Below, one piece after another: positions 1 to 19,489 of a stretch of 64,000 nt of DNA. The stretch is taken from assembly GCA_963660615.1 (NCBI GenBank), contig CAVKYE010000001.1, forward strand, positions 69,954-133,953. The letters are read 5' to 3'. A program made the translations under genes and the position numbers. The number at the start of each line of letters is the position of its first letter. The stretch's first letter is position 1. The notes beneath the pieces were generated by a model, which saw only the letters and a program-made list of their open reading frames with translations, did no database searches and was not told the DNA's origin. Origin of the DNA: Vescimonas coprocola. GTDB lineage: Bacteria; Bacillota_I; Bacilli_A; RF39; UBA660.

Positions 1-152
1 ACACCTGCTAGAGCAATACCAACTCTTAAACACCAATCAGTTAAAGTTTTAATGGCTTTTAATATTGTATCAATATTGTAATTACCACCATCTAATTTTG
101 TTATTGCTAATGTACTTATAGTATTCCCTATATTGTATAGAGAACTTCCTAT
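1..152 (-). CDS. partial ORF (5' end only, continues beyond window start); small protein of unknown function
   Basis: Open minus-strand frame from TTG at ~152 (AGGTG SD-like 8 nt upstream) running off the window edge: MFKLIGSSLYNIGNTISTLAITKLDGGNYNIDTILKAIKTLTDWCLRVGIALAGV... Not in the ORF track because it is truncated by the window. Confidence 0.25.
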   Translation of the reverse strand, partial: MGSSLYNIGNTISTLAITKLDGGNYNIDTILKAIKTLTDWCLRVGIALAG

Positions 153-327
153 AAGTTTAAACAATAAACAACACCTCGAAATTTATATTTTTATTCATCT
201 TATTATCATCCTCCTTAACAAAATAAGAAAAAGAGCAAAATAGTGATATAATAAGTTCGTTATCTATTTTTAATAACACTAGAGTTAGCCCTAACTAGCT
301 CTTTTATTTTGCTCTAATTTCATTTGA

Positions 328-675
328 CTAAATTTCTATTTCATCATTATTTTTTTCTTTGGATTTTGCTAAAAATGTAACTCTTTCAGCAATAACTTCT
401 TGAATAGTTTGTTTTGAATTATCTTTATCAATAACTCTTGTTTGAATACGACCTTTAATACCAATTAAATCTCCTTGTTTACAATATTCACTTGTATTTT
501 CAGCAATACCAGACCACATTGTACATTTAATAAAATCAGTATCATATTCGCCATTTTCATTTTTATAACTTCTAGGTACGGCAACAGTTATATTACATAC
601 TTTTTTACCGTTCTCTAATTCAGTTACTTTTGGATCTTGGGTAATCCTACCAACCAATACTGTTTCATTCACCAT
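328..675 (-). CDS. ssb: single-stranded DNA-binding protein (SSB, OB-fold)
   Basis: Translation has the typical SSB N-terminus (MVNETVLVGRITQDPKV...GKKVCNITVAV) and an acidic C-terminal tail (NNDEIEI). Internal ATG at 675 is preceded by AAAGGAGGTGG, so the true start is probably there rather than the TTG at 693. Confidence 0.8.
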   Translation of the reverse strand: MVNETVLVGRITQDPKVTELENGKKVCNITVAVPRSYKNENGEYDTDFIKCTMWSGIAENTSEYCKQGDLIGIKGRIQTRVIDKDNSKQTIQEVIAERVTFLAKSKEKNNDEIEI

Positions 676-696
676 TAAACCACCTCCTTTCAAGTA

Positions 697-1071
697 TTAA
701 TAACACAAATCATCATTAAAGATTTTTTGTGCTTTTTCCGTTGCTTTTTCAATAGATTCTTTACCAAAGTATTCAGAATATTTTTCTATTTGCTCATCGG
801 TTAAAGAACGATCCTCACCAAGTTCTGGATCATCACCAACAATAAAAAAATTACCACATATAACATCATGACCAATATCACGATTTGGTGGTAATCCTAA
901 AATTTTTCCTTCTTCATTACAAACTATTGCAATATCATTTGAACCACTTAAATAAGTGCATTCAATTAATCCATTAACAAGTTTTTGTTTGTCCTCTAAG
1001 GTGTTTTTTATTGTTCTTTTTTCTGGCAATTTGTTTGGCTCAACATAAAGAACACTTAATTTTCTTTGCAA
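697..1071 (-). CDS. DUF3846-like protein (common in phage/ICE replication modules)
   Basis: 124-aa ORF directly upstream of and almost abutting ssb. Sequence pattern (EPNKLPE...LGLPPNR) resembles the DUF3846 family seen in mobile elements; assignment by memory only. Confidence 0.4.
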   Translation of the reverse strand: MQRKLSVLYVEPNKLPEKRTIKNTLEDKQKLVNGLIECTYLSGSNDIAIVCNEEGKILGLPPNRDIGHDVICGNFFIVGDDPELGEDRSLTDEQIEKYSEYFGKESIEKATEKAQKIFNDDLCY

Positions 1072-1086
1072 TTTATCACAACCTTT

Positions 1087-1524
1087 CTAACTATATTCAC
1101 TAAGTAATTTTTCCATTTCTTTCTTTTCATCTTCGGTCGGAGGTATTGTTTCACATCTTTTACCATTCCAAACCATAACACCATCTTCATCATACCTAAT
1201 ATGTGGAGATGATGTTCCATTAATTAATTCGTTTGGTTTATCAGTAATCTTAGTAACCATAATATAAGATTGAATATTATTATTCTTATCAGAGTAGGTT
1301 TTTAAATATCCTTTAATAAATACTTTTTTATCTTTAATAAAAAAATCTTTATATTTGTAATAAAGATTATTGTGGATTCTTAAATTAAGATAACAATTAT
1401 TATTTGAATAATCATTACAAGTTAGACCAAACAGACAATAATTATTAGTATTATAAATATTATTGATTTTACCAGATAACATAACTTCATTATAATTTAT
1501 ATCTTCATACATAAAAGCCTCCAA
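1087..1524 (-). CDS. hypothetical protein with C-terminal motif DEDGVMVWNGKRCETIPPTEDEKKEMEKLLSEY shared with 60665..61183
   Basis: The C-terminal ~35 aa are clearly homologous to the C-terminus of the 172-aa HTH protein at 60665..61183 (DTDGVMLWDGKRCESVEPTEEERKEMEDLLSEF). Confidence 0.5.
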   Translation of the reverse strand: MEAFMYEDINYNEVMLSGKINNIYNTNNYCLFGLTCNDYSNNNCYLNLRIHNNLYYKYKDFFIKDKKVFIKGYLKTYSDKNNNIQSYIMVTKITDKPNELINGTSSPHIRYDEDGVMVWNGKRCETIPPTEDEKKEMEKLLSEYS

Positions 1525-1631
1525 TCTAATTTAAAGTTTATATTAGTATTACTAATAATATTATTAGAATTATTTTATTTATTAATTTATTTATTCTTTT
1601 ATTTATTTGTAGGAAGTATATCTCCTGTCGG

Positions 1632-1877
1632 TTAGGAAGTGTCTTGCCACTCTGACGGGAGAGTTGGATCCTTACTATCATCTATATAAATTTTTCTTCT
1701 ACTGTTATTTTTTTCTTTTCTATCAATTATTACCTTGATATAACCCTTACTATGTAAATTACTTATACAAGTTCTAATTGTTCTTTCACTAACATTATTT
1801 ACTTTACTTAAATAATGATTAGTAGCATAACAGTAGCCTTTATTATTACATAGTGCTGATATTTCTCCATAAATCAA
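1632..1877 (-). CDS. HTH domain protein (phage/ICE replication-associated), paralog of the N-terminal half of 60665..61183
   Basis: MIYGEISALCNNKGYCYATNHYLSKVNNVSERTIRTCISNLHSKGYIKVI aligns with LDKLIYIRIVGFCRNDKYNNTCFASNGYFANLFGVKPKAISVTIKKLKDLDLINV of the 60665 protein. Confidence 0.5.
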   Translation of the reverse strand: MIYGEISALCNNKGYCYATNHYLSKVNNVSERTIRTCISNLHSKGYIKVIIDRKEKNNSRRKIYIDDSKDPTLPSEWQDTS

Positions 1878-1970
1878 CTTTTCTAAATGTGTTAAAGAAA
1901 AATCTAAGATGACAAAACTAGGAGTAATACATGAATTAAATATTTTGGGTATTCAATATCACTCCTAATA

Positions 1971-2609
1971 TTAATAAGCCACCTTATTTGTTAAATAACC
2001 AATATAAACTGTTTGAGTATCTTTTGTATTTTTCTTGCAAGTAATTAAAGTTATAGTAGTTTTTTGATTATCTCTATAAACTTCAATATGACCATCTTTA
2101 CTGGTATCATATATTTTACTTATAGAATATTCATATTTATAACCATTATAATAAACATAAACTTTATCATCATTATTTAGTTTATATAAATTTTTAAAGA
2201 AAGAAATATAACTAGCTCCATTATGACTAGCAAGAACTAAGTTACCATTAACAACATCTGGCATAGAAGATTTGTCTATAATTTGAATATTATAATTAAC
2301 ATTATTATATTTACTACTAGGATCTACTAAACCTCGTTTTAAATTTATAGATGGAATATCTAAAACAGCAATGTAGTTATAATTAGTAATTTTGGAAGTA
2401 GTAGTATTTTCTTGCTTATCTTCTTTTGATTCTTCTACTTGTGAAGTATTATCATCATCAAAAAATTCTTCTATTTTAGTATCATTATTTTCATCTAATT
2501 TTACTTTAGTAGAATAATTATAAACAATCATAAACATACCACAAGCAAAAAGTAGTAAGCCAATTAATTTAATAAGATTAAACTTCTTATTTTCTTTTCT
2601 TCGTACCAT
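1971..2609 (-). CDS. sortase (transpeptidase), N-terminal membrane anchor
   Basis: N-terminal TM segment; catalytic-site motif TLITC near the C-terminus (TITLITCKKNT). Overlaps by 23 nt the upstream VPNTG-protein gene, so probably co-transcribed. Confidence 0.8.
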   Translation of the reverse strand: MVRRKENKKFNLIKLIGLLLFACGMFMIVYNYSTKVKLDENNDTKIEEFFDDDNTSQVEESKEDKQENTTTSKITNYNYIAVLDIPSINLKRGLVDPSSKYNNVNYNIQIIDKSSMPDVVNGNLVLASHNGASYISFFKNLYKLNNDDKVYVYYNGYKYEYSISKIYDTSKDGHIEVYRDNQKTTITLITCKKNTKDTQTVYIGYLTNKVAY

Positions 2610-5040
2610 ATAAGAATAATCCTAGTCCAGATACAATTAAAACTATACTTCCAATTAGTTCATAATTAATATTACTTAAACCAGTATTTGGAACTTCGTA
2701 TGCTTCATCTAACATATTACATTTAACAACTTGTCCATCTTCAGTAATTTCAAAATACATTTTTTCATCATTTATTTTGTATCCCTCTGGTGCTTCTTTT
2801 TCTAAAATGTAGTATTTACCAACTGGTAATTTATCAATAATGATTTTACCATTCTCATCAGTACGACCAGAATAAACTAACTCATCATTTTCATTGTAAA
2901 TTTCAATTAATGTGTTAGGTAAAGTCTTACTGTTTGAATAATCAGATTTAGTAAATTCTAAAGTACCTTTTGGCAAATGATTTTCTAAAGTAGTTTTGTA
3001 ATTAATTACTTCTGTATATTGATCTTTATATTCAAGATCGAAATTATATTTAGTTTTATCCAACACATGGTTATTTACTGTTTCAATTTCTTGTAAATAG
3101 TATTTTCCTAAATATAAATCATCTACCTTAACATAACCATTTTCATCAGTAATTAATTCTTTTACTAGTGTACCTTTTTTGTATTTTAAATTACCAAGAG
3201 CATCATATATATTTTCTCTAGCATATAAACCAATTTTAACGCCTTTTAAATTAACTTTAGTATAAATATACCCATTATCAGTTAATTCTACTTCTTCGCC
3301 AGTTTTAGTTAGTTCTAGGCTACCTTTAACTGCTTTATTTTCAAACTTAACTTCAAATAAGATTCCAAATTCTTCATCATTAATTAATTTAGAATCTTCA
3401 CCAATTTTAAATTCTACAGAATTTTTATTCCATAAATAACCATCGATTTTTTGATCTACTTCCTCTAGATAGTAAGTACCTGCCTTTAATGGATAAGGTG
3501 TGATTAAAATACCATTAGAATCAGTCTCAAAAACATCAATAGTTTTAGCAGTTGGATAAGTTATTGTTTGTTTAACATATTCTTTAGTATCAACATTATA
3601 GATTCTAAACTTAATATTTTTTCTAGCAATAATTTGTTTAGTGTCTTTATCAATTTTAACAACTTTTAATTTAGCTGTTATTTCAGCATTGGAGATAGTG
3701 TAGTAAATTTTATCTCCCATTTCATAAACATTAATTGTAAAATCATCTACCTTAGTAGTATCTTTAGAAGTAGTTAATTGTTTTACTGTATAAGTTCCAT
3801 ATACTAGATTAATATTTAATTTTCCATTTTTATCAGTTTTTCCAGTCTTATAAAGTTCACCTTTACTATTATAAAAACCAAACTCTACATTAGGCTCTGG
3901 TGTCATTATTTCAGATTTACTAGTAGCATAAACTTTTGTAAGTTCAACATCACGATTTATTATTTTTTCTTTTACAATAACATAGTTATCAATATTATCT
4001 AGAGAACTAGTAAAATAATATTTAGTAGTGTCTAATTGATAACCTTTACTAGGACTTATTTCTCGTAAATAGAAATCCCCAAAATAAGGTAAATGTTCTA
4101 TTTTTGCATAGCCATTACTATCAGTAGTTGTTTTTCCAACTAGGGCATCTGTTTTTTTATCATAAATTCCATAAATTGCACCACTTAAAGTTGCTTCACC
4201 TTGTGGTTTAGCAGAATTATTGTCTTTATCATATTTAGTAAAGTCAATTTTTCCTCCCTCAGATTTGATATTTAAAGATGCATAAACTGGATCAACTGCT
4301 CCAGAAGATAACATTGTTTGAATACCATTACCATAATATACAAGATATTGTCTTGTAGTATACATTTTTTTCTTGAATTGCATAGTAATATTACCAACAT
4401 TAGTAGCACGAATAGTAATAGTATTGCCATTAACTTGATATTCAGCATTATTACTCATTATTACATCGTAATTTGATAATACATTGTTAGTATCAGTTAG
4501 TGTTATTTTATCACCAACTTTCATAGTAACTGTTTGACCATTAAAAGATGGTTTTACATAATGACTATTAACTAGATTCATAATTTCGTTTCTTTCAGCA
4601 GATACATCTATATTTGTTCCTGCTCCCCATCTTTGAGTGGAGTAAGAAATACTATAGTTTCCTGCCTGTTCCCATAAAAGGGCTTGAGTTGCTAATCTAT
4701 AATTTAATGTTTGATGATTTGGATAATCATAACCGTAATAAGCAATTAGTAACATTTTTAGTTTTTGTTCATTAGAATAATTGGTATTAGACATATCTCC
4801 AACTGTATAATTATTAGTTCCTTCTGGAACACCTGGCTCTATACAATAGGCAACACGATCTCCAAAATAATAATCTTGAGTGTACCAACTATGAGTAGAT
4901 TCATTTGGACTAGTTCTCATCCAAAAATAACCAGACTTATTCATTGTTAAAGTAGCTCCTTGAGCATATACCGATGTAGTAGAGACACATCCAATTATGA
5001 CACCAAGTAGCAACAAGAAATTTCTAATTTTATTTTTCAT
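2587..5040 (-). CDS. cell-wall-anchored surface adhesin: signal peptide, thioester-type domain, repeated Cna-B/isopeptide-like domains, VPNTG sorting signal
   Basis: N-terminal signal peptide (MKNKIRNFLLLLGVIIGCVSTTSVYA). YCIEPGVP and TQALLWE motifs match the Cys/Gln pair of thioester domains. C-terminus is VPNTG followed by a hydrophobic stretch and KKRK. Repeated beta-rich YGxY/T-rich segments typical of CnaB/pilin-like domains. Confidence 0.75.
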   Translation of the reverse strand: MKNKIRNFLLLLGVIIGCVSTTSVYAQGATLTMNKSGYFWMRTSPNESTHSWYTQDYYFGDRVAYCIEPGVPEGTNNYTVGDMSNTNYSNEQKLKMLLIAYYGYDYPNHQTLNYRLATQALLWEQAGNYSISYSTQRWGAGTNIDVSAERNEIMNLVNSHYVKPSFNGQTVTMKVGDKITLTDTNNVLSNYDVIMSNNAEYQVNGNTITIRATNVGNITMQFKKKMYTTRQYLVYYGNGIQTMLSSGAVDPVYASLNIKSEGGKIDFTKYDKDNNSAKPQGEATLSGAIYGIYDKKTDALVGKTTTDSNGYAKIEHLPYFGDFYLREISPSKGYQLDTTKYYFTSSLDNIDNYVIVKEKIINRDVELTKVYATSKSEIMTPEPNVEFGFYNSKGELYKTGKTDKNGKLNINLVYGTYTVKQLTTSKDTTKVDDFTINVYEMGDKIYYTISNAEITAKLKVVKIDKDTKQIIARKNIKFRIYNVDTKEYVKQTITYPTAKTIDVFETDSNGILITPYPLKAGTYYLEEVDQKIDGYLWNKNSVEFKIGEDSKLINDEEFGILFEVKFENKAVKGSLELTKTGEEVELTDNGYIYTKVNLKGVKIGLYARENIYDALGNLKYKKGTLVKELITDENGYVKVDDLYLGKYYLQEIETVNNHVLDKTKYNFDLEYKDQYTEVINYKTTLENHLPKGTLEFTKSDYSNSKTLPNTLIEIYNENDELVYSGRTDENGKIIIDKLPVGKYYILEKEAPEGYKINDEKMYFEITEDGQVVKCNMLDEAYEVPNTGLSNINYELIGSIVLIVSGLGLFLYGTKKRK

Positions 5041-5184
5041 TTTCTATCATTTCCTCCTCTCGTGAAAATTTACTTGATAAGGCACAAGCAGACCATAAAA
5101 AAAGCACTAATAAAATTAATAGTGCAATTCCGATAAATAATAATATTTTCATTTTTTCCTCCAAAATAAAAAAGACTAGAATAT

Positions 5185-5799
5185 CTAATCTTTATACTTA
5201 TTACAATTTCCAGATGAACAATTAATATATAAATATTCACCTAAAACTGTACCTTGACCATCAACAACATCCATACACCAACTATTAATAATATCAACAG
5301 TATCTTTCAAAGAAATTCTTTCACTAGCAGAAAGACAAGCATCCATAGAACTATATTCAATTTTACCTTTATGAAAAGAATAATTAAAATCATTTGGATT
5401 AGGAATACCTATATAAGAATTATTATTTTCTTTTGTTGGTTCTTCTTTAATTTGATTATTATTAGATTGTGATTGATTTTGTTGATTATTATTTTGATTT
5501 ATTTCATTTGAATTATTTGATGTAGTAGAAGTAGTAGAAAATACTTTATTTTCTTTTACCTCTTCCTTAGGGCTTTCTACAACATCAACATTTTCATTTT
5601 TTTCTTTTGGTAATTCCTTTTGATTTTCTGTTTTCTCTTGAATATCTTTTTGTTTTACTTTTTCTTTTGATTCTGTATTGCTAGTAAAATTTTTTGATAA
5701 GTTATTCTTATTAGAATTGGTTTTACCAATAAAGATAAAAGTAGTAATTAATATCATTATCATAATAATACCAACAAATTTAAAGATTTTCGATTTCAT
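5185..5799 (-). CDS. membrane-anchored low-complexity protein (N/Q/S/E/K-rich) with Cys-containing C-terminal domain; unknown function
   Basis: N-terminal TM helix (IIMIMILITTFIFIG), long compositionally biased region, C-terminal ~80 aa with 5 Cys. Confidence 0.4.
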   Translation of the reverse strand: MKSKIFKFVGIIMIMILITTFIFIGKTNSNKNNLSKNFTSNTESKEKVKQKDIQEKTENQKELPKEKNENVDVVESPKEEVKENKVFSTTSTTSNNSNEINQNNNQQNQSQSNNNQIKEEPTKENNNSYIGIPNPNDFNYSFHKGKIEYSSMDACLSASERISLKDTVDIINSWCMDVVDGQGTVLGEYLYINCSSGNCNKYKD

Positions 5800-5915
5800 A
5801 ATATCACCTTTGCCTGAATGATATACTACTTAAAAACTTTTGTCAAATCATTAAGAATTACCATTTACACAATCATAAAACCACCTCCTTTAAGTCAAGA
5901 AAAAAAGTTGCATTT

Positions 5916-6452
5916 CTACAACTTGAATTCTTTCATAAATTTTTTAAACTTTTCTTCTTCATTGGGATCAGCAAATCCATCATCATCATTATATACTTCT
6001 ATATCTAAGGCACAAGCAAATTTCACAATACAACTGTTTTTTATAGGAACAAGACCTTTATTAGAACAACCAATTTCTTTAAATGCACGAGTTTCGGATT
6101 CTTGTCTATATAAACATATAGTGTAGTAGACTAATTCTTCTTGACTAAAATGTTTAGTTATAAAACAAATCTTTTTAGACAAAGTTTGATATTCTGTATC
6201 ATTATCAATAAAATTATCTAACCTAGTATAGTCATTAATACCTTTAGTTTTTTCATCAACAAAAATATATTTATATGTACTAGTAATTTTAATAGGCATT
6301 TCACAATAATTTTTGCTTTTTAATCTTCTATATTTTTTCATAAACATACAGACACGGTAGAAAGTTCTTTCTATATCATAATCTGCTAAATCAAATTTAG
6401 ATAATAATTCATTATCAAATACATCTTCTTTTTCTTGTATTGTGTTATTCAT
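5916..6452 (-). CDS. hypothetical protein
   Basis: 178-aa ORF with plausible codon usage; no motif recognised. Confidence 0.35.
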   Translation of the reverse strand: MNNTIQEKEDVFDNELLSKFDLADYDIERTFYRVCMFMKKYRRLKSKNYCEMPIKITSTYKYIFVDEKTKGINDYTRLDNFIDNDTEYQTLSKKICFITKHFSQEELVYYTICLYRQESETRAFKEIGCSNKGLVPIKNSCIVKFACALDIEVYNDDDGFADPNEEEKFKKFMKEFKL

Positions 6453-6487
6453 TTTAACCCTCCAACTTGAATATAGCCAATAGAAAA

Positions 6488-6539
6488 GGAGATGCTTATA
6501 AGGGGAATTTAACCCTGTATAAGTATCTCCTTGTTTTTT
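6488..6539. terminator. strong hairpin (13-bp stem, 17-nt loop) followed by T-run; bidirectional-looking terminator/attenuator
   Basis: GGAGATGCTTATA-aggggaatttaaccctg-TATAAGTATCTCC followed by TTGTTTTTT. An A-rich run precedes it, giving a T-run on the minus strand. Confidence 0.5.
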
Positions 6540-6824
6540 AGAGAAACTAAATTTAAGTTATAAACACTAAAATAAGATTTATGATTTTGCATAGTTAATC
6601 ACCTTACCTTAAGGTGAAGTCATCAAATACTACCACAATCACTTCACACATAACAAAAATTTTCTTTTTCCAAATATTGGCTACTATTCTAATATTTTTA
6701 TTTATTATTGTCAATGGCTTTTTCAAAAAAATTAACAACAAAAAAACGATGATTGTTTCTTTCGATACAATTCATCGATTTTACTATATTTTACCACTTG
6801 ACTTTACTAAGTCAAGAACTAAAC

Positions 6825-6860
6825 AATGCTTTTCAATGCTTTTCGATGCTTTTTGATGCC
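6825..6860. repeat. short tandem repeat (~10-11 bp x3: AATGCTTTTC / AATGCTTTTC / GATGCTTTTTG)
   Basis: caATGCTTTTCaATGCTTTTCgATGCTTTTTgATGCC read directly from sequence, in the intergenic region just downstream of the 6863..7216 gene. Confidence 0.6.
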
Positions 6861-6862
6861 AA

Positions 6863-7216
6863 CTATAAATCGCAAACTAAATCATCAATTTGCTCTTTAG
6901 AAAAAGTGGAGGCTTCAATTATTAGACTATTATAATAAGCATTGGCTTCCTGTTCGTTGAAAAATATTTTTAAGTCAAATTTACCATATAAATCATCTGT
7001 CTTTTTATTTTGAATAAGCATATATACGACATATTCATCTTTATTAAGATTACTAGCATTAGAAGTAGTAATTATCATAACAATACTTACTATATAAGAA
7101 TCTAATTCTATTTCTTTATGTTTATTAGTTGAATTAACACTAATATTTTTTAATTCACTTATGATATCCCTTTTTGATTCTACATTTTTATTAACTACTC
7201 TCATAATGCACCTCAA
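6863..7216 (-). CDS. hypothetical protein
   Basis: 117-aa ORF; no recognisable motif. Confidence 0.35.
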   Translation of the reverse strand: MRCIMRVVNKNVESKRDIISELKNISVNSTNKHKEIELDSYIVSIVMIITTSNASNLNKDEYVVYMLIQNKKTDDLYGKFDLKIFFNEQEANAYYNSLIIEASTFSKEQIDDLVCDL

Positions 7217-7289
7217 AATTTAATTTACTATTATTATACACAATTATTAAAAGAAAGAAATACTTTCATAAAATATTTCTTAGTAATTT

Positions 7290-7538
7290 TTAATTAACAT
7301 TGATTTTGTTGCTGAAACGATTGATAACTTTGTCGCATAATTCTTCTATCATTACATATACTAAAAAAGGTAAAAACATAACTGATAATAATGCTTCGAC
7401 GAACAATGGGCATCCTGTCATTGAAAAAGGGGATGCTTCTAAAGTATATCCTAAATTCGTATCAAAATAAAAAACTTTAATTAGAAATACTAAAAATACA
7501 AATGTTCCAAATATACTTAGTGCTTTTTTTATACTCAT
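7290..7538 (-). CDS. small membrane protein (two predicted TM helices)
   Basis: 82-aa ORF with two hydrophobic segments (IFGTFVFLVFLIKVFYF; MFLPFLVYVMI). Confidence 0.35.
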   Translation of the reverse strand: MSIKKALSIFGTFVFLVFLIKVFYFDTNLGYTLEASPFSMTGCPLFVEALLSVMFLPFLVYVMIEELCDKVINRFSNKINVN

Positions 7539-7693
7539 TTTATCTCACCACCATAACTATTTAAGATTTACTACATACTTAATATGATAACCGATTTTTA
7601 TAAAAAATCAACACTTTTACCTTAAACAGTTGTGCAAAAGACAATTATTTAACACTTGTATAAAATAAATTGTAGGAAGTGAGGTAAGATTTT

Positions 7694-7972
7694 ATGAATA
7701 ATAGCCGTGAAATACTATCAATGAATTTAAAATATTATAGACAGAAATATAACTTATCTCAAGAAAAGTTTGCTGAGAAAGTTGGTAGCAATCTAGTATA
7801 TATAAATGAATTAGAAAATTGTAAAAGAAAACCTACGATTGAAATGCTTGATAAGATAGCAGAAGGCATGAATAAGAACATTGATCGTAAATTAAAAATG
7901 ACTGCATCAGAATTATTAAAATATGATAGAAGTCATAAAACAACATTTAATAGAATAGATGAAAAGAAGTAA
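7694..7972 (+). CDS. XRE-family helix-turn-helix transcriptional regulator
   Basis: LKYYRQKYNLSQEKFAEKVGSNLVYINELENCKRKPTIEMLDKIAEGM is a canonical HTH_XRE domain. Divergent from the minus-strand genes, sitting immediately beside the RM genes (a controller-protein-like position). Confidence 0.75.
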   Translation: MNNSREILSMNLKYYRQKYNLSQEKFAEKVGSNLVYINELENCKRKPTIEMLDKIAEGMNKNIDRKLKMTASELLKYDRSHKTTFNRIDEKK

Positions 7973-7979
7973 TTTTTAA

Positions 7980-9500
7980 TTAAACTACTTCTTTTTGCTT
8001 TAAGTTAAAATTTTCTTCTCTTTTAGATAAAAATACTTTAGTTCTATTTGTTAAAACTTCGGCTGGTAACTGATTACTTGTGGTTATTAAATCAAAAAAC
8101 ATTTTACTTTCTGGAGTAGCATTTAATTTAACCAATACTTTTCCGTTTGAACTATCAAAACAATAATAATTACTATCAAATAACCCATGATGATTACTAC
8201 ACAACCAAATTCCATTGTCTCCTGAATTTGCCAACATATATTTCTTATAAAATTGTTCATTGCAATGTTCATTACTAGTATCAAGTAATTTTTTCATATC
8301 TGTATTCATATATACTTCATTAATACTTTCTGATGATGCTTTTGATATTTCAGCAACTCCCCACAAATGAGCTGCTTCTAGTATATTTTCTATTTCACAA
8401 CCACATAAATAACATTTTGTTAGTAAGCCTTTTTCACGCATATTATTTTTAAATAATTCTTGATTTCTTAAATCCTTATTTGCTTTTGCTGTTTCATATT
8501 GATTTTTTTCTCTTTCAAATTGATGCAATATTTCATCAGATGTCTCATAATTTATTTCTAAGTGTGCTTTGTCAATCAAATTTAATATAGGTCCTGTAAA
8601 ACCTGTTGATTGCTTGATATTTTCTTTACCATCATTCAAGTGGTATAATTGTGAGCCAAATAAGAATTCTAAATTTTTATTTTCTTTTTTTGCAAGAATT
8701 ATTAAAGTCCACATAGTGAAAAAACTGTCATATCCCTCAGCAGATAAAGTTTTAAAAGTATAGATATATTTATGTTTTGAAAGATCAATGTATTCTTGAT
8801 TTTCGTAAACATCATTTTTTGAAATATCATATTCTTCATCAATACATTTCAAGTATGATGGAACATTTCCCATATTTCTTTTAGATAAATATAAAATATC
8901 ATTTGCAAACTTATTAAATGAAATATATTTAATATCTTCATGTGATTCTTCTAAACTAAAACCTAAAGGTTCATATTCTTTAAAAGAAATTTCATCTAGA
9001 TTTAATATTTCAAAACCTATAGTAGCAAGTTTACGATAATTCATTAAATTTGATAAATTTTTTGCATAAGATTCATTTGTATCTAATAAATATATGTATA
9101 ATTTTACATTTTCCCCATTATTAAGAGAATCATAATAATACTCAAATACTTTATTTAATCCTTGAAATAAATAGGTGTTAGAATGATAATCTTTTCTTCC
9201 ATAAACATATTTTCCACCAAATTTTTCAACTTCTAATTTTTTATCTTCATCATAATTTGTATTTGAAAAACCAATAATATATTTTAAATTATTGCTTTCA
9301 TATACGGAAATAGTTCTAGTATGTACTTTTTGGGATCTTTGGGCTTGAATAGTATCACCATCTAAACTTACTATTTCTATATTTATACTATTTTCATTAA
9401 TATCTATTCCATCTTTAGCATAAGCTCTTTTTATAGCATCCTTATAAACCTTTTTATATGTTTCATAATTACAATTATAAATTTTTGCTGTTATATTCAT
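7980..9500 (-). CDS. putative restriction endonuclease with C-terminal HNH nuclease motif
   Basis: C-terminal CYLCGCEIENILEAAHLWGVAEI...NGIWLCSNHHGLFD is an HNH (His-Asn-His, Cys-ligand) motif. Gene immediately downstream of a DNA methyltransferase, as in an RM operon. Confidence 0.6.
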   Translation of the reverse strand: MNITAKIYNCNYETYKKVYKDAIKRAYAKDGIDINENSINIEIVSLDGDTIQAQRSQKVHTRTISVYESNNLKYIIGFSNTNYDEDKKLEVEKFGGKYVYGRKDYHSNTYLFQGLNKVFEYYYDSLNNGENVKLYIYLLDTNESYAKNLSNLMNYRKLATIGFEILNLDEISFKEYEPLGFSLEESHEDIKYISFNKFANDILYLSKRNMGNVPSYLKCIDEEYDISKNDVYENQEYIDLSKHKYIYTFKTLSAEGYDSFFTMWTLIILAKKENKNLEFLFGSQLYHLNDGKENIKQSTGFTGPILNLIDKAHLEINYETSDEILHQFEREKNQYETAKANKDLRNQELFKNNMREKGLLTKCYLCGCEIENILEAAHLWGVAEISKASSESINEVYMNTDMKKLLDTSNEHCNEQFYKKYMLANSGDNGIWLCSNHHGLFDSNYYCFDSSNGKVLVKLNATPESKMFFDLITTSNQLPAEVLTNRTKVFLSKREENFNLKQKEVV

Positions 9501-9511
9501 TTTTGCCTCCT

Positions 9512-11392
9512 TTAATAATTAATTATTATAATTTCTTGTCTATCCTGTCTGTTTCTCTTAGTTATTTTTTCATTGACTATCATTTTAAAATTATTTTCTT
9601 TTATCCAAGTGGCTAATGGAGTATTTTCTTTACCATTTCTATCAATCATATTAGAAAGCATAAATTTTATTCCTTTTTTATCTAATTTAGTCAAAAATTG
9701 TAACAATTCTTTTTCTTGATTTTCATCCCAACCATTAAAACCTCTTTTGCCATCGTTATATGCACCACACGAAATTAAATAAGGTGGATCACAATAAACA
9801 AAATCCTGCTTTTCTATAGTTTTTTCATATTTTTTGTAATCCATTGATTTGAATACAATATTTTTATTTTTAGTTATGTAGGAAAATGAACAAAGTTTTT
9901 CTAACATATCCTCATTATATCCAGAATTTCCACATGGATTATTAAATTCTAGTTTACTATTAAATCTAATTTGGTGTTCAAAGCCAAAACATATAAGCAA
10001 ATATAAATCAAGAGGATTTCTACTTCCTATATCCTTACTATTGTATAAGGTTCTAAAGTTGATATATGTTTCCTTATTTTTTTTCTCTAAATTATATTTT
10101 TTTATAGTTTTTTCAATATATTGATATGTTCTAACAAAATCTTGATGACATATTTTTTCTAATAAATCTCTAACCATCCAGTTTATGTCATTATAAACAA
10201 TTTTACTCGCATTTGCATTTATGCAAACTGTACCACCACCACCAAACAAATCATAAAATGTATTTATTTGTTTTGGCATATATTTTGTTAAAAATGGTAA
10301 AACATCCCACTTTCCACCAATATAGTTTAACGGTGAAATATAAAGAGGCTTTTCTTCTTTTTCTATATAAAATAACCATTCATAATGTTTTTTATCTTTT
10401 GTATTTTCTTTTATTTCTTTATTAACAGCACGTGTGCTTTTATATTTTACAAAATCGATTTTCTTGAAAGTATATGTTCCTTCCTTAGCATATCTTTTCA
10501 TTACTTTTTCGATATATTCTTTACTCATTATACCAGCATCACTATAACTAAAAATAATGTGCTTAAATTTAGCATTTGCAATAAGTTTTTCAAATTCTTC
10601 ATGAACATGTCCTTTTCTACACCACATTGAAATTTGATCTCCATTATCACGGTGAGCTCCAACGCCGTGTATTTCTGGATTATCATTTTTTGCAATAGTT
10701 TCAAGCACATGATATTGACTGATGTATTGTGTAGGAGTATATGGGGGATCTAAATATAAAATATCACCACTTATTTTTTCTATTAAGTCATTTGCATTTA
10801 ACATATAAACTTCATTTTTATATTTTACATCTCCAAAGGTTTCTAATGGAATAAATTCCATTTTTTTTGTTGCTCTTGAATCCCAAATTTTTAAATATGC
10901 AGAATATACTCCAGCAACATTTGACACTTTACTAATACTTTCTAATAAACTACCAATAAGATAATATTTTTCATTTTCATCTATTTTCTTTTCATCAAAC
11001 CATATATCAATAGTATTTCTAATAAAATCAATTTTTTTTGCATTTTCATCCGAAAAATATTGTCTTCCAGATACTTCTGGAGCAAAATTATTATAACAAA
11101 ACCCTTTTTTATAATTATCTGAATCATAATTATTAAAGTATTCAAAAGGGTCGAATCCTAAATTTTTAAAAAATGTTTTAGAATTATACTTTAGTTTACC
11201 ATTACAAATTGCGTATGAAAAATATAAATTATCATTTGCAATTATTTCAAATCTATTTTTGAAATAATCCCCAACCGTACAAGTTCCAGCAAAAAGATCA
11301 CAAAAAGTCTGACCTTTTTTATCTAATTTTTTCTCTTTTATAAATTTATCTAATGTTTCCAGCAATTTAGCCTTGTTTCCTATATATCTCAT
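9512..11392 (-). CDS. fused double N6-adenine DNA methyltransferase (two Dam/D12-class domains, two DPPY motifs)
   Basis: N-terminus RYIGNKAKLL (Dam-family SAM-binding motif). Two catalytic DPPY motifs (LYLDPPYTPTQY and VYCDPPYLISCGAYNDG), and a second GGKW-like motif (NYIGGKWDVLPFL) starting the second domain. Probable start is the ATG at 11392 (GGAG 8 nt upstream) rather than 11437. Confidence 0.8.
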   Translation of the reverse strand: MRYIGNKAKLLETLDKFIKEKKLDKKGQTFCDLFAGTCTVGDYFKNRFEIIANDNLYFSYAICNGKLKYNSKTFFKNLGFDPFEYFNNYDSDNYKKGFCYNNFAPEVSGRQYFSDENAKKIDFIRNTIDIWFDEKKIDENEKYYLIGSLLESISKVSNVAGVYSAYLKIWDSRATKKMEFIPLETFGDVKYKNEVYMLNANDLIEKISGDILYLDPPYTPTQYISQYHVLETIAKNDNPEIHGVGAHRDNGDQISMWCRKGHVHEEFEKLIANAKFKHIIFSYSDAGIMSKEYIEKVMKRYAKEGTYTFKKIDFVKYKSTRAVNKEIKENTKDKKHYEWLFYIEKEEKPLYISPLNYIGGKWDVLPFLTKYMPKQINTFYDLFGGGGTVCINANASKIVYNDINWMVRDLLEKICHQDFVRTYQYIEKTIKKYNLEKKNKETYINFRTLYNSKDIGSRNPLDLYLLICFGFEHQIRFNSKLEFNNPCGNSGYNEDMLEKLCSFSYITKNKNIVFKSMDYKKYEKTIEKQDFVYCDPPYLISCGAYNDGKRGFNGWDENQEKELLQFLTKLDKKGIKFMLSNMIDRNGKENTPLATWIKENNFKMIVNEKITKRNRQDRQEIIIINY

Positions 11393-11488
11393 TTTATCAA
11401 CTCCAAATAAATAACCATTATATATTATAACATACAAATCATGTTTTTTCTTAAATGAGTGTATAAAAAAACTAGAATTTAAATCCAG

Positions 11489-12193
11489 TTAATCCAAAGT
11501 TACAGATATATCATAGGTGTATTTATATTTTCTTCGTTTATATTTTTTTCTGGCAAATACATGACCAACTAAATGTTTATGTTCTTCTTTATTAAATGGA
11601 TGTCCAGCATCGAAACTTGGTATTACGTTTTCAATAATATCAATAATTTCCCATGAATCATCAAAATATTCTCTCATTTCTAATCTTCTGAAATATTGCT
11701 CTTTTGGATAGTTAATATAATCATGTTCGTTTTCTGCTAAATGATAGAATATATAAATTAAACCATTTTCTTTAACAGAAGATAACAATTTTCTCATTTT
11801 TCTTTCTTTAGGTATGTGTTTATTACAATTTAAGTGCAGTGATTTATAACAAAACACAAAGTCGTATTCTTTTTCAACTTTTTGCTCAAAAAAATTTCTT
11901 TCAAACAAATTTACTTTATCCTCATAATGAAAATACTTTAATTTTTCTTTTAAACCAACTATATTAAAATCATCTATAATACCACCGTTTATAAATTCTT
12001 CTTGTTGTTCATAACAATCCAATTTAAAGCCTCTTCTAACAGTACATAGTATATGTAAACCATCCAAAGCATTTGGTATTAATATTTTTATATTTTTATC
12101 ATTATTAAAGTGATTATCAACATATTTAATTATATGTTTGGTATATTGCTGGTAATCTTCTCCAAAGCAACTACCATATCCTTTTTTTCCCAT
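11489..12193 (-). CDS. hypothetical protein (possible SAM-dependent methyltransferase-like fold; uncertain)
   Basis: 234-aa ORF, last gene of the element before the junction with spoVE; no firm motif. Confidence 0.3.
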   Translation of the reverse strand: MGKKGYGSCFGEDYQQYTKHIIKYVDNHFNNDKNIKILIPNALDGLHILCTVRRGFKLDCYEQQEEFINGGIIDDFNIVGLKEKLKYFHYEDKVNLFERNFFEQKVEKEYDFVFCYKSLHLNCNKHIPKERKMRKLLSSVKENGLIYIFYHLAENEHDYINYPKEQYFRRLEMREYFDDSWEIIDIIENVIPSFDAGHPFNKEEHKHLVGHVFARKKYKRRKYKYTYDISVTLD

Positions 12194-12411
12194 AATCTAA
12201 TTCCTTTCAAAATTAGATATAATAGACCCCTAAATTTGTATGTTATCATCGTAAGGCAACCTATCAAAAAAGTTGCAATTTTTTTGCTTTTTTTTGCAAT
12301 TTTCATAAATTTTTAGTTTTTTTCTAAATAAGGTTAAATTATCAAATTCGGTTTTTTCCCTTATTATAAGGGCTAAAAAGTGTCTGTAGTTATAGGATAC
12401 CACGAAGTATA

Positions 12412-13397
12412 ACCCCAGTTACTGGTATAAGGCCAACTACTACCATAAGATTAAGTAAAGCTTGAAAGCCTAAAGAAAATATAATTCCAAAAGCTAGATA
12501 TTTTCCAAATAAATTCTCACATTTTAAAGCTATTTTTATTCCTATGGCAATTATGCTGATGAATAATAATGCGACGATTAAAATTCCAACGAATCCAAAT
12601 TCTTCGCTAATGATTGAGAAAATGAAGTCTGTTTGAGGTTCGGGTAAGTAAAAATGTTTTTGTCTAGAGCCTCCAAGCCCAAAGCCAAATAATCCTCCTG
12701 GCCCGATTGCATAAAGTGATTGTATAATTTGAAAACCACTACCTAACGGATCTTCCCAAGGGTTTAAAAATGATAGTATTCTTTTTAATCTATAGGGGGC
12801 GGCTATAATTAAGGCTATGACTCCTAAAAGGCCAATTACTAAGGTTTTTAAGAAGAATTTTATTGAAACTCCTCCGGCAAATAAAAGTCCTATAACACCC
12901 ATGACTAAAATCATGCCTGTTCCAAAGTCAGGTTGTAACATAATAAGGCCAAAGACTATTAAAGTAAGGCCAAGGATTGGAATAACACCTTTTTTTATAT
13001 TACCCAAATCTTTACGGTTATTATATAGATATTTGCTTGTAAAAATAATCATTGCTAGTTTCATAAATTCACTAGGCTGCACGCCAAAAGAACCGATACC
13101 AAACCAACTTTTACTGCCATTTTTCTCAGTTCCAAATATTAAGACTAAAACTAGTAGGATAAAACAGATAATAAAAATTTTATTAGAATATTTATAATAG
13201 TTTTCAAAGTTAAATTTGCTGACTAAATACATAAGTATAATTCCTAGGATTAAAAACATTCCTTGGTTTTTTACGTATTTAAAGGTGTCATTAAATTTAT
13301 AATCTGCCCAAACGTATGAGGCTGAATAAATCATAATTAGGCCAAATAACGATAAAAGTATTATTAATATAAACAAGGAAATATTTATTTTTTTCAT
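12412..13397 (-). CDS. spoVE: SEDS-family peptidoglycan glycosyltransferase (SpoVE/FtsW/RodA), 5' segment only: reading frame leaves the family consensus right after the conserved GLIPVTG motif (split or truncated gene)
   Basis: Contains GSKSWFGIGSFGVQPSEFMKLAMIIF and the rest of the SEDS fold. Ends ...GLIPVTGVILRGIL*, lacking the conserved PLPFISYGGSS... C-terminus (~35-40 aa). Downstream DNA (12194..12411) is non-homologous AT-rich element DNA. Start at 13397 (MKKINISLF) overlaps the mraY stop. Confidence 0.75.
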
Positions 13398-14387: not shown

Positions 14388-15248
14388 CTATCCCATAAAA
14401 AGTCTAACAGTCTCCCCTTCATAAATTCTTTCGCCTGCTGAAGGTGACTGATAAGTTACTTTATCACCCGAACCACTTATCTCAACTTTAAATGAAGATA
14501 AGTTTTTAACGGCTTCTTCTTTACTTTTACCAACAACATTACTAACTTCTTTATACTTTTTGTCAGTATACTGATACTCTTTCTCCATTCCACCAGAAGG
14601 TTTTTTAATATTAAGGGCTTTTATACAATCCAATAAAATCTCCCGAGCTGGTGGGCCGGCAATAAGGCCTCCAAATTGATTAACGCCTTTTGGATTATCA
14701 ATTGCGACATAAACTACTACTTTTGGATTATTGGCAGGAAGAAAGCCAATAAAAGACAAAATGTAATTGTTAACTAAATATTTGCCATTTGAAACCTTTT
14801 GGGCGGTTCCTGTTTTTCCTCCTACTCGGTATCCGTCAATATATGCTGTTCTACCAGTACCATTTGAAACGACACTTTCTAAGGCATGCCTAACTTCTTT
14901 ACTAGTTTTTTCACTAATAACTTTACGGATAACGGTTTTTTTATTTTCTTTTATAACGCTATTAGTTTCTGGTTCATTTATACTTTTAACAATATATGGT
15001 TTATATAAAATACCACCATTTATGGCTGCACTAACTGCGGTTACTTGTTGAATGGGAGTAACTGATACACCTTGACCGAAGGCGGTTGTTGCAAGTTCTA
15101 CAGGGCCTACTTTATTCATTTTAAATAAAATACCAGAGCTTTCGCCATTTAAATCAATACCAGTTTTACTACCAAATCCAAACTTTCTTATATATTCAAA
15201 TAGTTTTTCTTTTCCAAGCTTTTGGCCTAAAATTACAAAGCCTGGGTT
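14388..15248 (-). CDS. spoVD: class B penicillin-binding protein (SpoVD/FtsI-like), 3' segment (transpeptidase C-terminal part plus PASTA-like domain)
   Basis: Begins ...SNPGFVILGQKLGKEKLFEYIRKFGFG and contains KTGTA (the KTG motif). No N-terminal domain or start codon; in-frame TAA stop 5 codons upstream of the segment. Joins in frame with 19251..19419 (ENSCN + PGF). Confidence 0.8.
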   Translation of the reverse strand, partial: NPGFVILGQKLGKEKLFEYIRKFGFGSKTGIDLNGESSGILFKMNKVGPVELATTAFGQGVSVTPIQQVTAVSAAINGGILYKPYIVKSINEPETNSVIKENKKTVIRKVISEKTSKEVRHALESVVSNGTGRTAYIDGYRVGGKTGTAQKVSNGKYLVNNYILSFIGFLPANNPKVVVYVAIDNPKGVNQFGGLIAGPPAREILLDCIKALNIKKPSGGMEKEYQYTDKKYKEVSNVVGKSKEEAVKNLSSFKVEISGSGDKVTYQSPSAGERIYEGETVRLFMG

Positions 15249-16950: not shown

Positions 16951-16982
16951 TTCCTTTCATGTGTTCCTAAAATTCAAGATAA

Positions 16983-17228
16983 CTAGGATGCTTGCATGGT
17001 AGCTCCATAATCAACATTTGTCAAATCATCTTTTTCATTTAATAAGTATTCGTTTCTTATTTTTTTTAGTCTTCCCATAATAGAATTTTCCATTTCATTA
17101 TATGTTCTTAAATCAATAACTTTTTCATCGTATAATTCTTTATTAACAATTAGTCTATATTCCAACAACTTATATTCAAAAGGTAATTGTTTTGTACTAA
17201 ATCTAACTTCTATATCTTTTTCTAGCAT
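16983..17228 (-). CDS. small conserved protein immediately upstream of recombinase 1; candidate recombination directionality factor/regulator
   Basis: 81 aa; the LEYRLIVNKELYDEKVIDLRTYNEMENSIMGRLKKIRNE segment is paralogous to the 52-aa ORF 21232..21390 upstream of recombinase 2 (LEYELIINKKLYDQGVITERQYDEVCKIIYEKINR). Confidence 0.5.
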   Translation of the reverse strand: MLEKDIEVRFSTKQLPFEYKLLEYRLIVNKELYDEKVIDLRTYNEMENSIMGRLKKIRNEYLLNEKDDLTNVDYGATMQAS

Positions 17229-17448
17229 TTAGATTTACCTCCAACTAATTTTATTCAAGGCGAAATAAAATTATACAAAAAAACCAACAACTTGGTTTTT
17301 TAGAAAATGCTATTTAAATTTTTATTCTGTTTTATTTATTACTAATACTTATCTTTATTTTTTCTCTAATAAATTTCATTAATTCTTAAAGAATATCAAT
17401 TATTTAAAACCATTGATAATTTAAATTGAATTCACTTATTTTTACAGA

Positions 17449-18300
17449 CTACGCTCCAACTAATTCAGACTCTAGTAATTCAATTACTTGTTTTATAGCA
17501 TTAATTGTATCTTCAAATTCTACATTTTTTGCATAAGTAAGTTTCTTACTATAATTATTAAATAATTCTTTTAATACAACACTATCTTTTATAATTTCAA
17601 ATATATCATTTAAATATTCTATATTAAAATTCGTATTTCTATGTTTAAATGTTCTTTTTATTGCTTTAATAAGTATATTCTTATCTATTTTATCTATATG
17701 ATTATTTACTATTACATACATATCGTAAAAGTCCTTTGCTCTTGTAGTAGTTATATTTTTACTAATAATACTTTCAAATTTTTCAGCAATTATAGTTTCA
17801 ATTGTATATGCCATAATATTAATAGTTTTATCTTCAAAAATAGAATTATATTTATACTTTATTTCTCTTGGTGTAATTATATCTCCTGTTGTTACTTCTA
17901 TAAAGAAATGTGTTTTTAATTTATCAAATTCTCCATAAACATTTATTCTATATCCACCGTATTCATCTTCTAATCTAATGTCCTTAATATTTTCGATTTT
18001 AAAAATAAAACTATCATTTATATCAATTGATAATATTTCTTCAAAAATATTTCTAATAGATTCTTCATTTAGTGAAATGCTTTTTAAGGTAGCGTCTATA
18101 TCTTTTGTAGTTCTCATATCACTTCCAATAATTGAAGAAAGTAATACTCCACCTTTTAGAATAATGTTATCTTTATACTTACTTTTTTCTAATCTCATTA
18201 ATACATGTTCAAAGAAAAACATTTGATGAAGATGTAGTGATACATCATTACTTTTTTTAGCACGATTTTTAATAAGTGCATTAATTTTATCACTATTCAT
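17449..18300 (-). CDS. abiEii: AbiEii/AbiGii-family nucleotidyltransferase toxin (type IV TA / abortive infection)
   Basis: 283 aa; N-terminal ...SLHLHQMFFFEHVLMRLEKSKYKDNIILKGGVLL...TKDIDAT matches the AbiEii/DUF1814 nucleotidyltransferase pattern. Overlaps by 1 nt the upstream AbiEi-like gene. Confidence 0.65.
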   Translation of the reverse strand: MNSDKINALIKNRAKKSNDVSLHLHQMFFFEHVLMRLEKSKYKDNIILKGGVLLSSIIGSDMRTTKDIDATLKSISLNEESIRNIFEEILSIDINDSFIFKIENIKDIRLEDEYGGYRINVYGEFDKLKTHFFIEVTTGDIITPREIKYKYNSIFEDKTINIMAYTIETIIAEKFESIISKNITTTRAKDFYDMYVIVNNHIDKIDKNILIKAIKRTFKHRNTNFNIEYLNDIFEIIKDSVVLKELFNNYSKKLTYAKNVEFEDTINAIKQVIELLESELVGA

Positions 18301-19419: not shown

Positions 19420-19489
19420 AAGTAACCCCCGAAAACGATACCTGAATAAAACAAAAAAAGACTAGATTACCATATAAATATATGATAAC

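Follow-up and report, generated by a model that had tools for sequence, protein, structure and literature searches.

A SpoVE-like SEDS gene of Vescimonas coprocola split by a predicted conjugative element at a serine-recombinase site

Why does the gene for a core peptidoglycan polymerase stop just short of its most conserved motif, and could the missing part be put back? The question is raised by a 64,000-nucleotide stretch of the Vescimonas coprocola assembly GCA_963660615.1 (contig CAVKYE010000001.1, positions 69,954 to 133,953; the whole stretch is called the window here), in which a SEDS gene of the SpoVE/FtsW type, next to mraY, runs into a mobile element. A preliminary description of this DNA had proposed that the gene is truncated after a PVTG motif and that a large element splits it and leaves the window at its left end. 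Both proposals were borne out, the first by the partial coverage of the family profile and the existence of an intact 358-amino-acid (aa) allele, the second by the junction and by the continuation of the element past the window.

The split SEDS gene and its 3' fragment

The features around the junction are as follows.

12390..13397, minus strand: SEDS (SpoVE/FtsW-like) open reading frame (ORF), ATG start, 335 aa, downstream of mraY
12415..13397, minus strand: host-derived 5' part of the SEDS gene, codons 1–327 and the first two bases of the Gly328 codon; PF01098; 100% identical to the intact allele P0001
12415..12416, minus strand: GG crossover dinucleotide (attL core), first two bases of the Gly328 codon
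12390..12414, minus strand: element-encoded tail of the truncated SEDS ORF, comprising the third base of Gly328, V-ILRGIL and the stop codon TAA (12392..12390)
1..12414, minus strand: attL-side 12.4 kb of an integrated conjugative element, with all genes but one on the minus strand and its far end on contigs L084, L085 and L083
13394..14422, minus strand: mraY, directly upstream of the SEDS gene (NCBIfam TIGR00445, 296.9 bits; cutoff 192)

The Pfam family PF01098 (FTSW_RODA_SPOVE) matched the window ORF with an E value of 6.6e-103, over profile positions 4–327 of 356 only, and the ORF's C terminus reads ...GLIPVTGVILRGIL, i.e. ...PVTGVILRGIL. In a search of 5.8 billion proteins, the intact allele P0001 (358 aa) was found to be 100% identical to the window ORF over the shared 329 residues. 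The 5' part of the gene therefore comprises 329 identical residues, without any substitution, and a 6-residue tail encoded by the element; this tail, VILRGIL*, recurs in three other species. The window ORF lacks the 29 C-terminal residues of P0001. The C-terminal loss described earlier is thus real, although it had been put at 35–40 residues. Solved FtsW and RodA structures can be aligned with P0001 over its whole length, and the 29 missing residues align with the last transmembrane helix and the conserved C-terminal motif of solved FtsW. The LPF(L/I)SYGGSS motif and this helix are absent from the window ORF; their codons lie on the detached 3' fragment, at the other end of the element. With this helix and the best-conserved motif gone, we infer that the truncated protein is inactive.

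The 3' fragment was reached from the other side. The gene downstream of intact SEDS encodes an HI0933-like flavoprotein (P0121), and a search for contigs with this exact protein returned five. Upstream of the flavoprotein gene, two of them (L003 and L082) carry intact SEDS. On the remaining three, L084 (GCA_963652445.1), L085 (SRR13434623), and L083 (SRR13434598), the flavoprotein gene is preceded by the gene of a 537-aa large serine recombinase (LSR) and then ~290 bp. This stretch starts with ...TATAAAGGGCAACTGG|AGTAACCCTTCCATTTCTATCATATGGAGGC, and everything past the bar is the intact allele through its stop codon, together with the intergenic region. The 29-codon SEDS 3' fragment behind the LSR has 100% DNA identity to the intact allele and is followed by the same downstream host gene. 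The leftward extension suggested in the preliminary description has thus yielded what it anticipated: at the element's far end, an LSR and a matching 3' fragment, with a copy of the junction core before the fragment.

At the window end, the DNA is identical to the intact locus (L003, SRR19415678) up to ...CCAGTAACTGG and then diverges. The identity ends at 12415/12414; the junction first placed at 12411 was correct to within 3–5 bp, and its exact position was not. The attL junction is also present in an independent assembly (L002, SRR13434623), and window positions 1..5351 are identical to a Logan contig from SRR13434598. Because of these two matches, an assembly chimera was rejected as an explanation of the junction. 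Sample SRR13434623 contains both the attL junction (L002) and the attR end (L085), and SRR13434598 contains both the element body and the attR end (L083).

The crossover point can be read from the two junctions. In the window species, AACTGG is common to attL, attR, and attB. In a second species carrying a related element (species B, contigs L086–L095), attL is host AACAGG|GGTT and attR is element AACTGG|AGTA, and GG alone is common to both junctions; the species B attB and the reconstructed attP are dissimilar outside this dinucleotide. The attP site was reconstructed as CCACACTATAAAGGGCAACT-GG-GGTTATACTTCGTGGTATCC, the arms of which form an imperfect inverted repeat as judged by eye. The attB junction sequence is …CCAGTAACTGGAGTAACCCTTCC…, and that of attP is …TATAAAGGGCAACTGGGGTTATACTTCG…. 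A 2-bp nonpalindromic core between dissimilar attP and attB sites is a signature of large serine recombinases. These junctions show that recombination of attL with attR at the GG would rebuild exactly the intact allele that is known from other strains.

The two ends were recovered on separate contigs, and their arms match both arms of one sister element. The attL-side contig L001 and the attR-side contig L084 do not overlap, and the middle of the element was not recovered. In the exact-sequence index, the longest contig listed for each of the truncated SEDS, the LSR, and the flavoprotein is 134,855 bp, which points to a single contig with all of these markers, and a scan of the HI0933-like protein against genome contigs for the right junction gave matches of at most 35% identity. 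The two independent attR-side assemblies L084 and L085 begin at the identical base (L084:1 and L085:1), 580 bp upstream of the LSR gene. This shared break suggests an assembler-stopping repeat inside the element, which may explain why its middle was not recovered.

The recombination unit and its conjugative carrier

The 537-aa LSR consists of a Resolvase domain (PF00239), a Recombinase domain (PF07508), and a Zn ribbon (PF13408), and its R14/S16 motif, YLRLS, is invariant in an alignment with three other LSRs. Among solved structures, the best match was the catalytic domain of TnpX (E value of 1.7e-24); SprA was matched over the full length (E value of 4.8e-20). XisF was the top NCBIfam match, far below the cutoff. 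The 90%-identity cluster of the LSR has 1,088 members. One of them, P0249, lies on ten human-gut metagenome contigs of species B, each of which contains both element ends on one contig, and the SEDS 3' fragment is intact in all ten. The order in species B is PBP (penicillin-binding protein), a 291-aa protein, mraY, SEDS 5' part (337 aa, with the tail VILRGIL*), a 7.3-kb element, SEDS 3' fragment, and host genes. The 7.3-kb element carries genes for a helix-turn-helix (HTH) regulator, Fur, rubrerythrin, a rubredoxin-oxidoreductase, three small ORFs, and the LSR, and it has no transfer genes. The window element and the 7.3-kb element are alike at their ends alone, that is, over ~660 bp at attL (89% identical) and ~2.25 kb at attR with an 80-aa ORF and the LSR (89.5% identical). 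In a third species (species C, L103), the attL arm is 98.8% identical to the window arm over ~215 bp and likewise abuts the ...PVTG site of SEDS, and the cargo comprises UDP-glucose dehydrogenase, radical SAM, ABC-F, APH, LysR, and DegT genes. A scan of the Joint Genome Institute (JGI) metagenomes with the attL arm gave 11 matches, three of which are chance matches in high-GC DNA. All eight true arms abut ...VVGLIPVTG of a SEDS gene, and two of them are from further species. The comparison shows that the recombination unit, made up of the attL arm, the 80-aa ORF, the LSR, and attR, behaves as a portable module, with the same SEDS codon split in at least five species and with three different cargos.

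The unit is also maintained by selection. Between the copies on the window element and on the 7.3-kb element, dN/dS is 0.09 for the LSR (dS of 0.39) and 0.076 for the 80-aa ORF, and the ten species B copies of the LSR show synonymous differences only. These values indicate purifying selection on the unit, even on a carrier without transfer genes. Because dS of the host SEDS gene between the window species and species B is 1.7, compared with 0.39 for the LSR, the unit moved horizontally, later than the divergence of the species. The 80-aa ORF lies directly upstream of the LSR and is conserved between the two elements; based on position and conservation, it is the sole candidate for a recombination directionality factor (RDF).

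Some further SEDS proteins break off at this codon but carry other foreign tails: P0271 with …PVTGFALLLLSKLRS… (PVTGFALLLL...), P0050 with …PVTGYVLLGN, and P0014 with …PVTPQ. Other element families probably use the same SEDS site, and the end of P0014 could be a contig-end cut. In some strains of species B, a 44-bp tandem duplication of the last SEDS codons (GTAGTATGGGTATTTTATTAAATATTAGTAGCCAAAATAAATAA) lies right after the stop codon (L086:11760-11850); it is absent in others, e.g. L087.

The carrier extends at least 7,051 bp past window position 1 (L001), and the recovered parts add up to at least 21.7 kb, with 19,465 bp from the attL end and about 2,260 bp from the attR end. Its features within the window, from the junction leftward, are listed below.

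11757..12414, minus strand: conserved attL arm of the recombination unit (blastn against the species B and C elements)
11489..12193, minus strand: 234-aa ORF in the attL arm, no family match
9512..11437, minus strand: fused double D12-class N6-adenine DNA methyltransferase, type II (PF02086, E value of 9.6e-67, two stretches; PADLOC MTase_II PDLC03287, E value of 3.9e-186, full length)
7980..9500, minus strand: 506-aa HNH_2-domain protein (PF13391, E value of 1.2e-7; no PADLOC match)
7694..7972, plus strand: HTH_3 protein, divergent, resembling restriction–modification control proteins (Pfam; PADLOC Control_protein, E value of 8.4e-12)
2587..5040, minus strand: 817-aa thioester-domain surface adhesin with five SpaA-type repeats and a sorting-signal-like C terminus (SpaA, E value of 3.5e-56; TED, E value of 2.8e-7)
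1971..2609, minus strand: sortase (PF04203, E value of 1.9e-19)
1632..1877, minus strand: HTH_36 regulator (Pfam)
697..1071, minus strand: DUF3846 protein (Pfam, E value of 1e-29), at the equivalent position in related conjugative elements (L100–L102)
328..693, minus strand: single-stranded DNA-binding protein (SSB; Pfam, E value of 7.2e-29), last element gene in the window

The restriction–modification system and the adhesin/sortase pair that had been read from the sequence were recovered by the PADLOC and Pfam matches to the methyltransferase and by Pfam, respectively. From its position, the HNH_2 protein is probably the restriction endonuclease partner of the methyltransferase. The 234-aa ORF resembles an S-adenosylmethionine-dependent methyltransferase by eye, and in species B (L086:4540-5075) it is broken into ORFs of 85 and 103 aa. 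Several ORFs without known function lie between the HTH_3 regulator and the adhesin, the gene of which is syntenic with related conjugative elements. Beyond SSB, L001 encodes a type IV secretion system (T4SS) pilin, a VirB6-like membrane protein (DUF8208), a VirB4-like ATPase, and an M23 hydrolase. The VirB4-like ATPase (786 aa; domains P-loop_TraG, DUF87, and AAA_10) has Spiroplasma proteins named 'ICE conjugal transfer ATPase' as its nearest annotated relatives, and 609 of the 1105 matching plasmids are typed as conjugative. Metagenomic relatives with a 92% identical VirB4 have the same gene order and carry a MobL-type relaxase and a TraG/VirD4 coupling protein. Neither of these two genes is present in the recovered 21.7 kb; the relatives carry both just past the point at which L001 ends, and, from this synteny, the genes should lie in the unrecovered middle of the element. 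Based on this gene content, we classify the element as an integrative conjugative element (ICE)-like element. Two of the VirB4 relatives (L101:10313-11293 and L102:12829-13809) have a tyrosine integrase after the MobL relaxase in place of the LSR unit. Because of this replacement among relatives with a 92% identical VirB4, the integration module of this ICE family has been swapped.

Split partner genes and the case for excision

The SEDS gene is not the only interrupted gene of this locus. The preliminary description had stated that a class B PBP and a carboxypeptidase are also interrupted by separate elements, and this was confirmed, with two LSR elements in the case of the PBP.

14388..23861, minus strand: three-piece region of the PBP upstream of mraY
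22941..23861, minus strand: N piece of the PBP, ending inside the SxxK motif (…GSTF|K)
about 19200..19400, minus strand: middle piece of the PBP, ending at the SxN motif (…ENSCN)
14388..15260, minus strand: C piece of the PBP
15196..16950: LSR (584 aa) of element A in the PBP, with AbiEii/AbiEi at 17449..18902
19490..21220: LSR (576 aa) of element B in the PBP, with Fic at 21479..22228 and a 192-aa ORF
63017..63664: N part of the DD-carboxypeptidase
41378..41806: PBP5_C part of the DD-carboxypeptidase
61287..62717: LSR (476 aa) of the ~21-kb insert in the DD-carboxypeptidase, with a sigma-70-family factor at 59665..60195, glycosyltransferases, several radical-SAM enzymes, ABC-F, and an APH-like kinase

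The three PBP pieces are intact and colinear, and the two elements that separate them are unrelated. Rejoined in silico, they give a 634-aa protein that scores 741.8 bits against the SpoVD model NCBIfam TIGR02214 (cutoff 688) over profile positions 8–635 of 636. All three strains seen of the window species have a split PBP; the related genome L082 appears to carry element B only, and in a related species PBP, mraY, and SEDS form an intact three-gene unit (L096). The LSR of the carboxypeptidase element adjoins the 5' fragment of its target, unlike those of the other three elements. Altogether, four independent LSR elements, whose recombinases share ~26% mutual identity, lie in three peptidoglycan-synthesis genes, all fragments of which are intact, colinear frames.

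Two observations concern the neighborhood of these elements. The species C cargo (L103:4270-14269) resembles that of the window carboxypeptidase element (46649..46918 and ~47637..47762), with 69–71% DNA identity between the ABC-F genes; this resemblance suggests an exchange of cargo modules among LSR elements that differ in target. Next to the PBP gene, on its upstream side, are a class B sortase (26162..26872) and a 686-aa protein without family match (24105..26165); srtA/B have been reported as absent from RFN20 and ML615J-28 (PMC10868615). Unless the two genes belong to an element of their own, this is a weak pointer to a host of the RF39 or Erysipelotrichales type.

Here, we propose a mechanism based on these arrangements. 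A conjugative element has entered the coding sequence of the SEDS gene after mraY by serine-recombinase site-specific recombination at the GG. The SEDS protein is probably the partner of the SpoVD-type PBP encoded upstream, and its loss may be tolerated if the pair is unneeded in vegetative growth; tolerance is suggested because the PBP partner itself is already split in every strain of the window species seen. A correlation with sporulation has been reported for dcw-type SEDS and class B PBP genes, and Clostridioides difficile can divide vegetatively without the pair (PMC10693644). The LSR, together with a directionality factor, would then excise the element and restore the SEDS gene. This could happen ahead of conjugative transfer, in the mother cell during sporulation, or on both occasions, in the manner of skin, SPbeta, and gin. 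The structural account of the split SEDS gene is, in our judgment, close to certain. The whole explanation, with its inferred steps, is evenly poised between right and wrong, and excision timed to sporulation is a real possibility that we hold to be slightly doubtful. More tentatively, and rather against expectation, the whole cortex-type machinery (the SpoVD-type PBP split twice, the SpoVE-type SEDS protein, and the DD-carboxypeptidase) of a lineage of uncultured gut Bacilli might be kept off in the germ-line chromosome by four LSR elements, one of them an ICE; cortex synthesis would then need coordinated mother-cell excision of all four, and the portable unit would be specialized on the SEDS motif.

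The insertion is a frequent strain polymorphism and is not fixed in the species. In the window species, intact SEDS alleles occur in at least five assemblies and the interrupted gene in three or four, the latter probably from one study. In species B, the intact 361-aa form is found on ~76 contigs versus ~51 with the interrupted gene among the 15 listed members of a 679-member cluster, so that ~40% of these contigs are interrupted.

Several observations weigh against developmental excision or against parts of the structural account on which it builds. First, the polymorphism in both well-sampled species would be expected for any active mobile element. Second, the continuity of the two element ends rests on their co-occurrence in the same samples and on the homology of both arms to one sister element. 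A search of the JGI metagenomes for the attP (excised circle) junction gave 0 matches, and the two element-carrying samples yielded no contig with the intact allele. Homology searches found no RDF, and the 80-aa ORF has no Pfam or PHROG match. Third, the sporulation character of the gene and the host is uncertain. The best model for the intact SEDS protein of the window species is SpoVE (TIGR02615), with 439.2 bits below the cutoff of 448.8, and the protein passes the FtsW model TIGR02614 (405 versus 337.5). The orthologues score 459.5 (species B, which passes), 446.4 (P0013), and 442.1 (P0062) against the SpoVE model, and the gene is a borderline case that we describe as SpoVE-like without filing it as SpoVE. 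Pfam and NCBIfam scans of ~45 host and element proteins found no sporulation-specific gene (spo0A, sigE/K, spoIVA, etc.) in the ~25 kb of host backbone, and the orders RF39, RFN20, and ML615J-28 mix predicted sporulators and nonsporulators (PMC10868615). No convincing sigmaE- or sigmaK-type promoters were seen by eye in the PBP upstream regions, an inspection judged unreliable in DNA of 25% GC. Finally, SpoVD and SpoVE of C. difficile have a further role in asymmetric division, at a stage that precedes compartment separation (PMC10693644), and for this reason strictly mother-cell excision fits poorly.

The main alternative is a plain knock-out. The SEDS motif DNA would be a common landing site of a selfish element, the host would be nonsporulating or would lose cortex synthesis while it carries the element, and the gene would come back only on transfer, without programmed excision. 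The polymorphism, with intact alleles common in both species, the host backbone without sporulation genes, and the missing attP junction all agree with this explanation; moreover, LSR elements often disrupt conserved genes (PMC10083194), and sporulation and peptidoglycan genes are being lost from these lineages of Bacilli (PMC10868615). However, four LSR elements lie in three genes with mother-cell cortex counterparts in Bacillus subtilis, and every fragment is intact and colinear. The PBP is split in all strains seen, yet it rebuilds a protein that passes the SpoVD model. The 7.3-kb element keeps its LSR under strong purifying selection despite having no transfer genes, a pattern from which maintenance of intervening elements by the host has been argued (PMC6957869). 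We regard the knock-out as a serious contender whose chance falls a little short of even.

It is improbable that the SEDS protein and the PBP are instead the main division machinery (FtsW/FtsI) of a small-genome, nonsporulating lineage, in which the elements toggle vegetative wall synthesis, for example between walled and wall-reduced forms. The orthologues are named 'putative lipid II flippase FtsW' by NCBI, the FtsW model is passed, and the three-gene unit includes mraY, which is usually single-copy. A relative on a 1.54-Mb contig suggests a small genome, and loss of most PBPs is predicted for the ancestor of these orders (PMC10868615). However, the best family matches are SpoVE and SpoVD, not FtsW and FtsI. 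Integrated states dominate whole metagenome assemblies, and ~40% of the contigs among the listed species B members are interrupted, so that a lethal or severely harmful loss is unlikely.

A prophage or defective prophage, as in skin and SPbeta, is very improbable and was rejected. SSB, HTH regulators, and a restriction–modification system are also found in phages, and the preliminary description had listed phage-like replication genes. However, none of the ten element proteins matched a PHROG family, and no capsid, terminase, portal, or tail Pfam domain was found in the recovered 21.7 kb. The genes in question form a conjugation module (pilin, VirB4-like ATPase, M23 hydrolase, SSB, and DUF3846), accompanied by the thioester adhesin and sortase, and the relatives with a 92% identical VirB4 add the relaxase and coupling protein.

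Lastly, a natural short variant or decaying pseudogene with no partner fragment in the genome, the case that the preliminary description had set against itself, is practically excluded: a six-frame motif search found no SEDS 3' fragment ('SYGG'-type) in the window, but the exact fragment lies behind the LSR in same-sample assemblies, the 5' part is unsubstituted, and among the 120 best homologues listed nearly all keep the C-terminal motif and most are 357–361 aa long, with a few longer (375–377 aa, from an earlier called start) or shorter.

Comparison with known intervening elements

The proposed excision of the ICE-like element from SEDS has its closest architectural precedents in skin, SPbeta, vfbin, vrin, and gin and, more broadly, in regulated gene integrity elements (PMC7192596). 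Like skin in sigK of B. subtilis and C. difficile (recombinases SpoIVCA and CD1231), an LSR element splits a gene into intact parts that precise excision would rebuild, and a conserved recombinase is accompanied by very different cargos and element sizes. Unlike skin, the target is a SEDS polymerase and not a sigma factor, the carrier is predicted to be conjugative and is not a defective prophage, and the LSR is closer to TnpX and SprA among solved chains. As with SPbeta in spsM (SprA integrase and SprB RDF), the recombinase of which aligns over its full length, a transferable element that is probably active splits a gene that is probably dispensable for growth, and its excision could serve both transfer and gene reconstitution. 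SPbeta is a phage, whereas the present element encodes a T4SS and has no detectable SprB homologue. The gin element in gerE of Bacillus cereus ATCC10987 (PMC5595907) is likewise a nonprophage intervening element with a serine recombinase and splits a small conserved region, in its case that of a sporulation gene, but it has three recombinase genes, no conjugation module, and another target and host lineage.

The portable unit itself can be compared with the attL-int-rdf-attR units that were experimentally swapped between phage, skin, and ICE in B. subtilis, with the sporulation genes staying rejoinable (Suzuki et al. 2019, PMC6957869). Like those exchangeable site-specific recombination units, a single unit here occurs with an ICE-like element, with a 7.3-kb element that lacks transfer genes, and with an element of polysaccharide and ABC-F cargo. 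In contrast to the engineered exchange, the present one is natural and cross-species. Tn4451 and Tn5397 of Clostridia (TnpX and TndX) are also conjugative or mobilizable elements of low-GC Gram-positive bacteria with an LSR and a 2-bp crossover. TnpX and TndX have relaxed targets (a GA dinucleotide at many sites), whereas the LSR described here was found at one site in eight of eight cases. Regulated gene integrity, in which a recombinase-bearing element interrupts a gene that its reversible or developmental excision restores, would further be shared with the A118-like prophage in comK of Listeria ('active lysogeny') and the cyanobacterial fdxN, nifD, and hupL elements (XisF), which differ in hosts, targets, and triggers.

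Interrupted sigK, spsM, spoVFB, spoVR, gerE, and kamA are present in the literature, and our literature search found no report of a split spoVE/ftsW-type SEDS gene or a split spoVD. Four features appear to be new: the target, a core peptidoglycan polymerase interrupted where its sequence is most conserved; the conjugative nature of the element that carries the gene-splitting unit; the combination of a single recombination unit with three cargos, across at least five species; and the presence of as many as four LSR elements within one functional gene set.

The finding has practical consequences. The LSR is a candidate broad-host integration tool, with a short conserved attB in a near-universal gene motif and signs of natural activity in at least five species. 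Split spoVD, spoVE, and dac genes will be missed or called pseudogenes in surveys of metagenome-assembled genomes, and this could bias predictions of sporulation and cell-wall phenotypes in RF39/RFN20-like lineages. If split PBP genes are common in the lineages surveyed in PMC10868615, part of their apparent absence could be an annotation artifact. If the excision is developmental, the core cortex synthases would join the list of rebuilt genes given above, with a conjugative carrier and not a prophage remnant, and several elements would act on one pathway in one genome. Should cortex synthesis indeed need the excision of all four elements, mobile elements would gate sporulation in this lineage.

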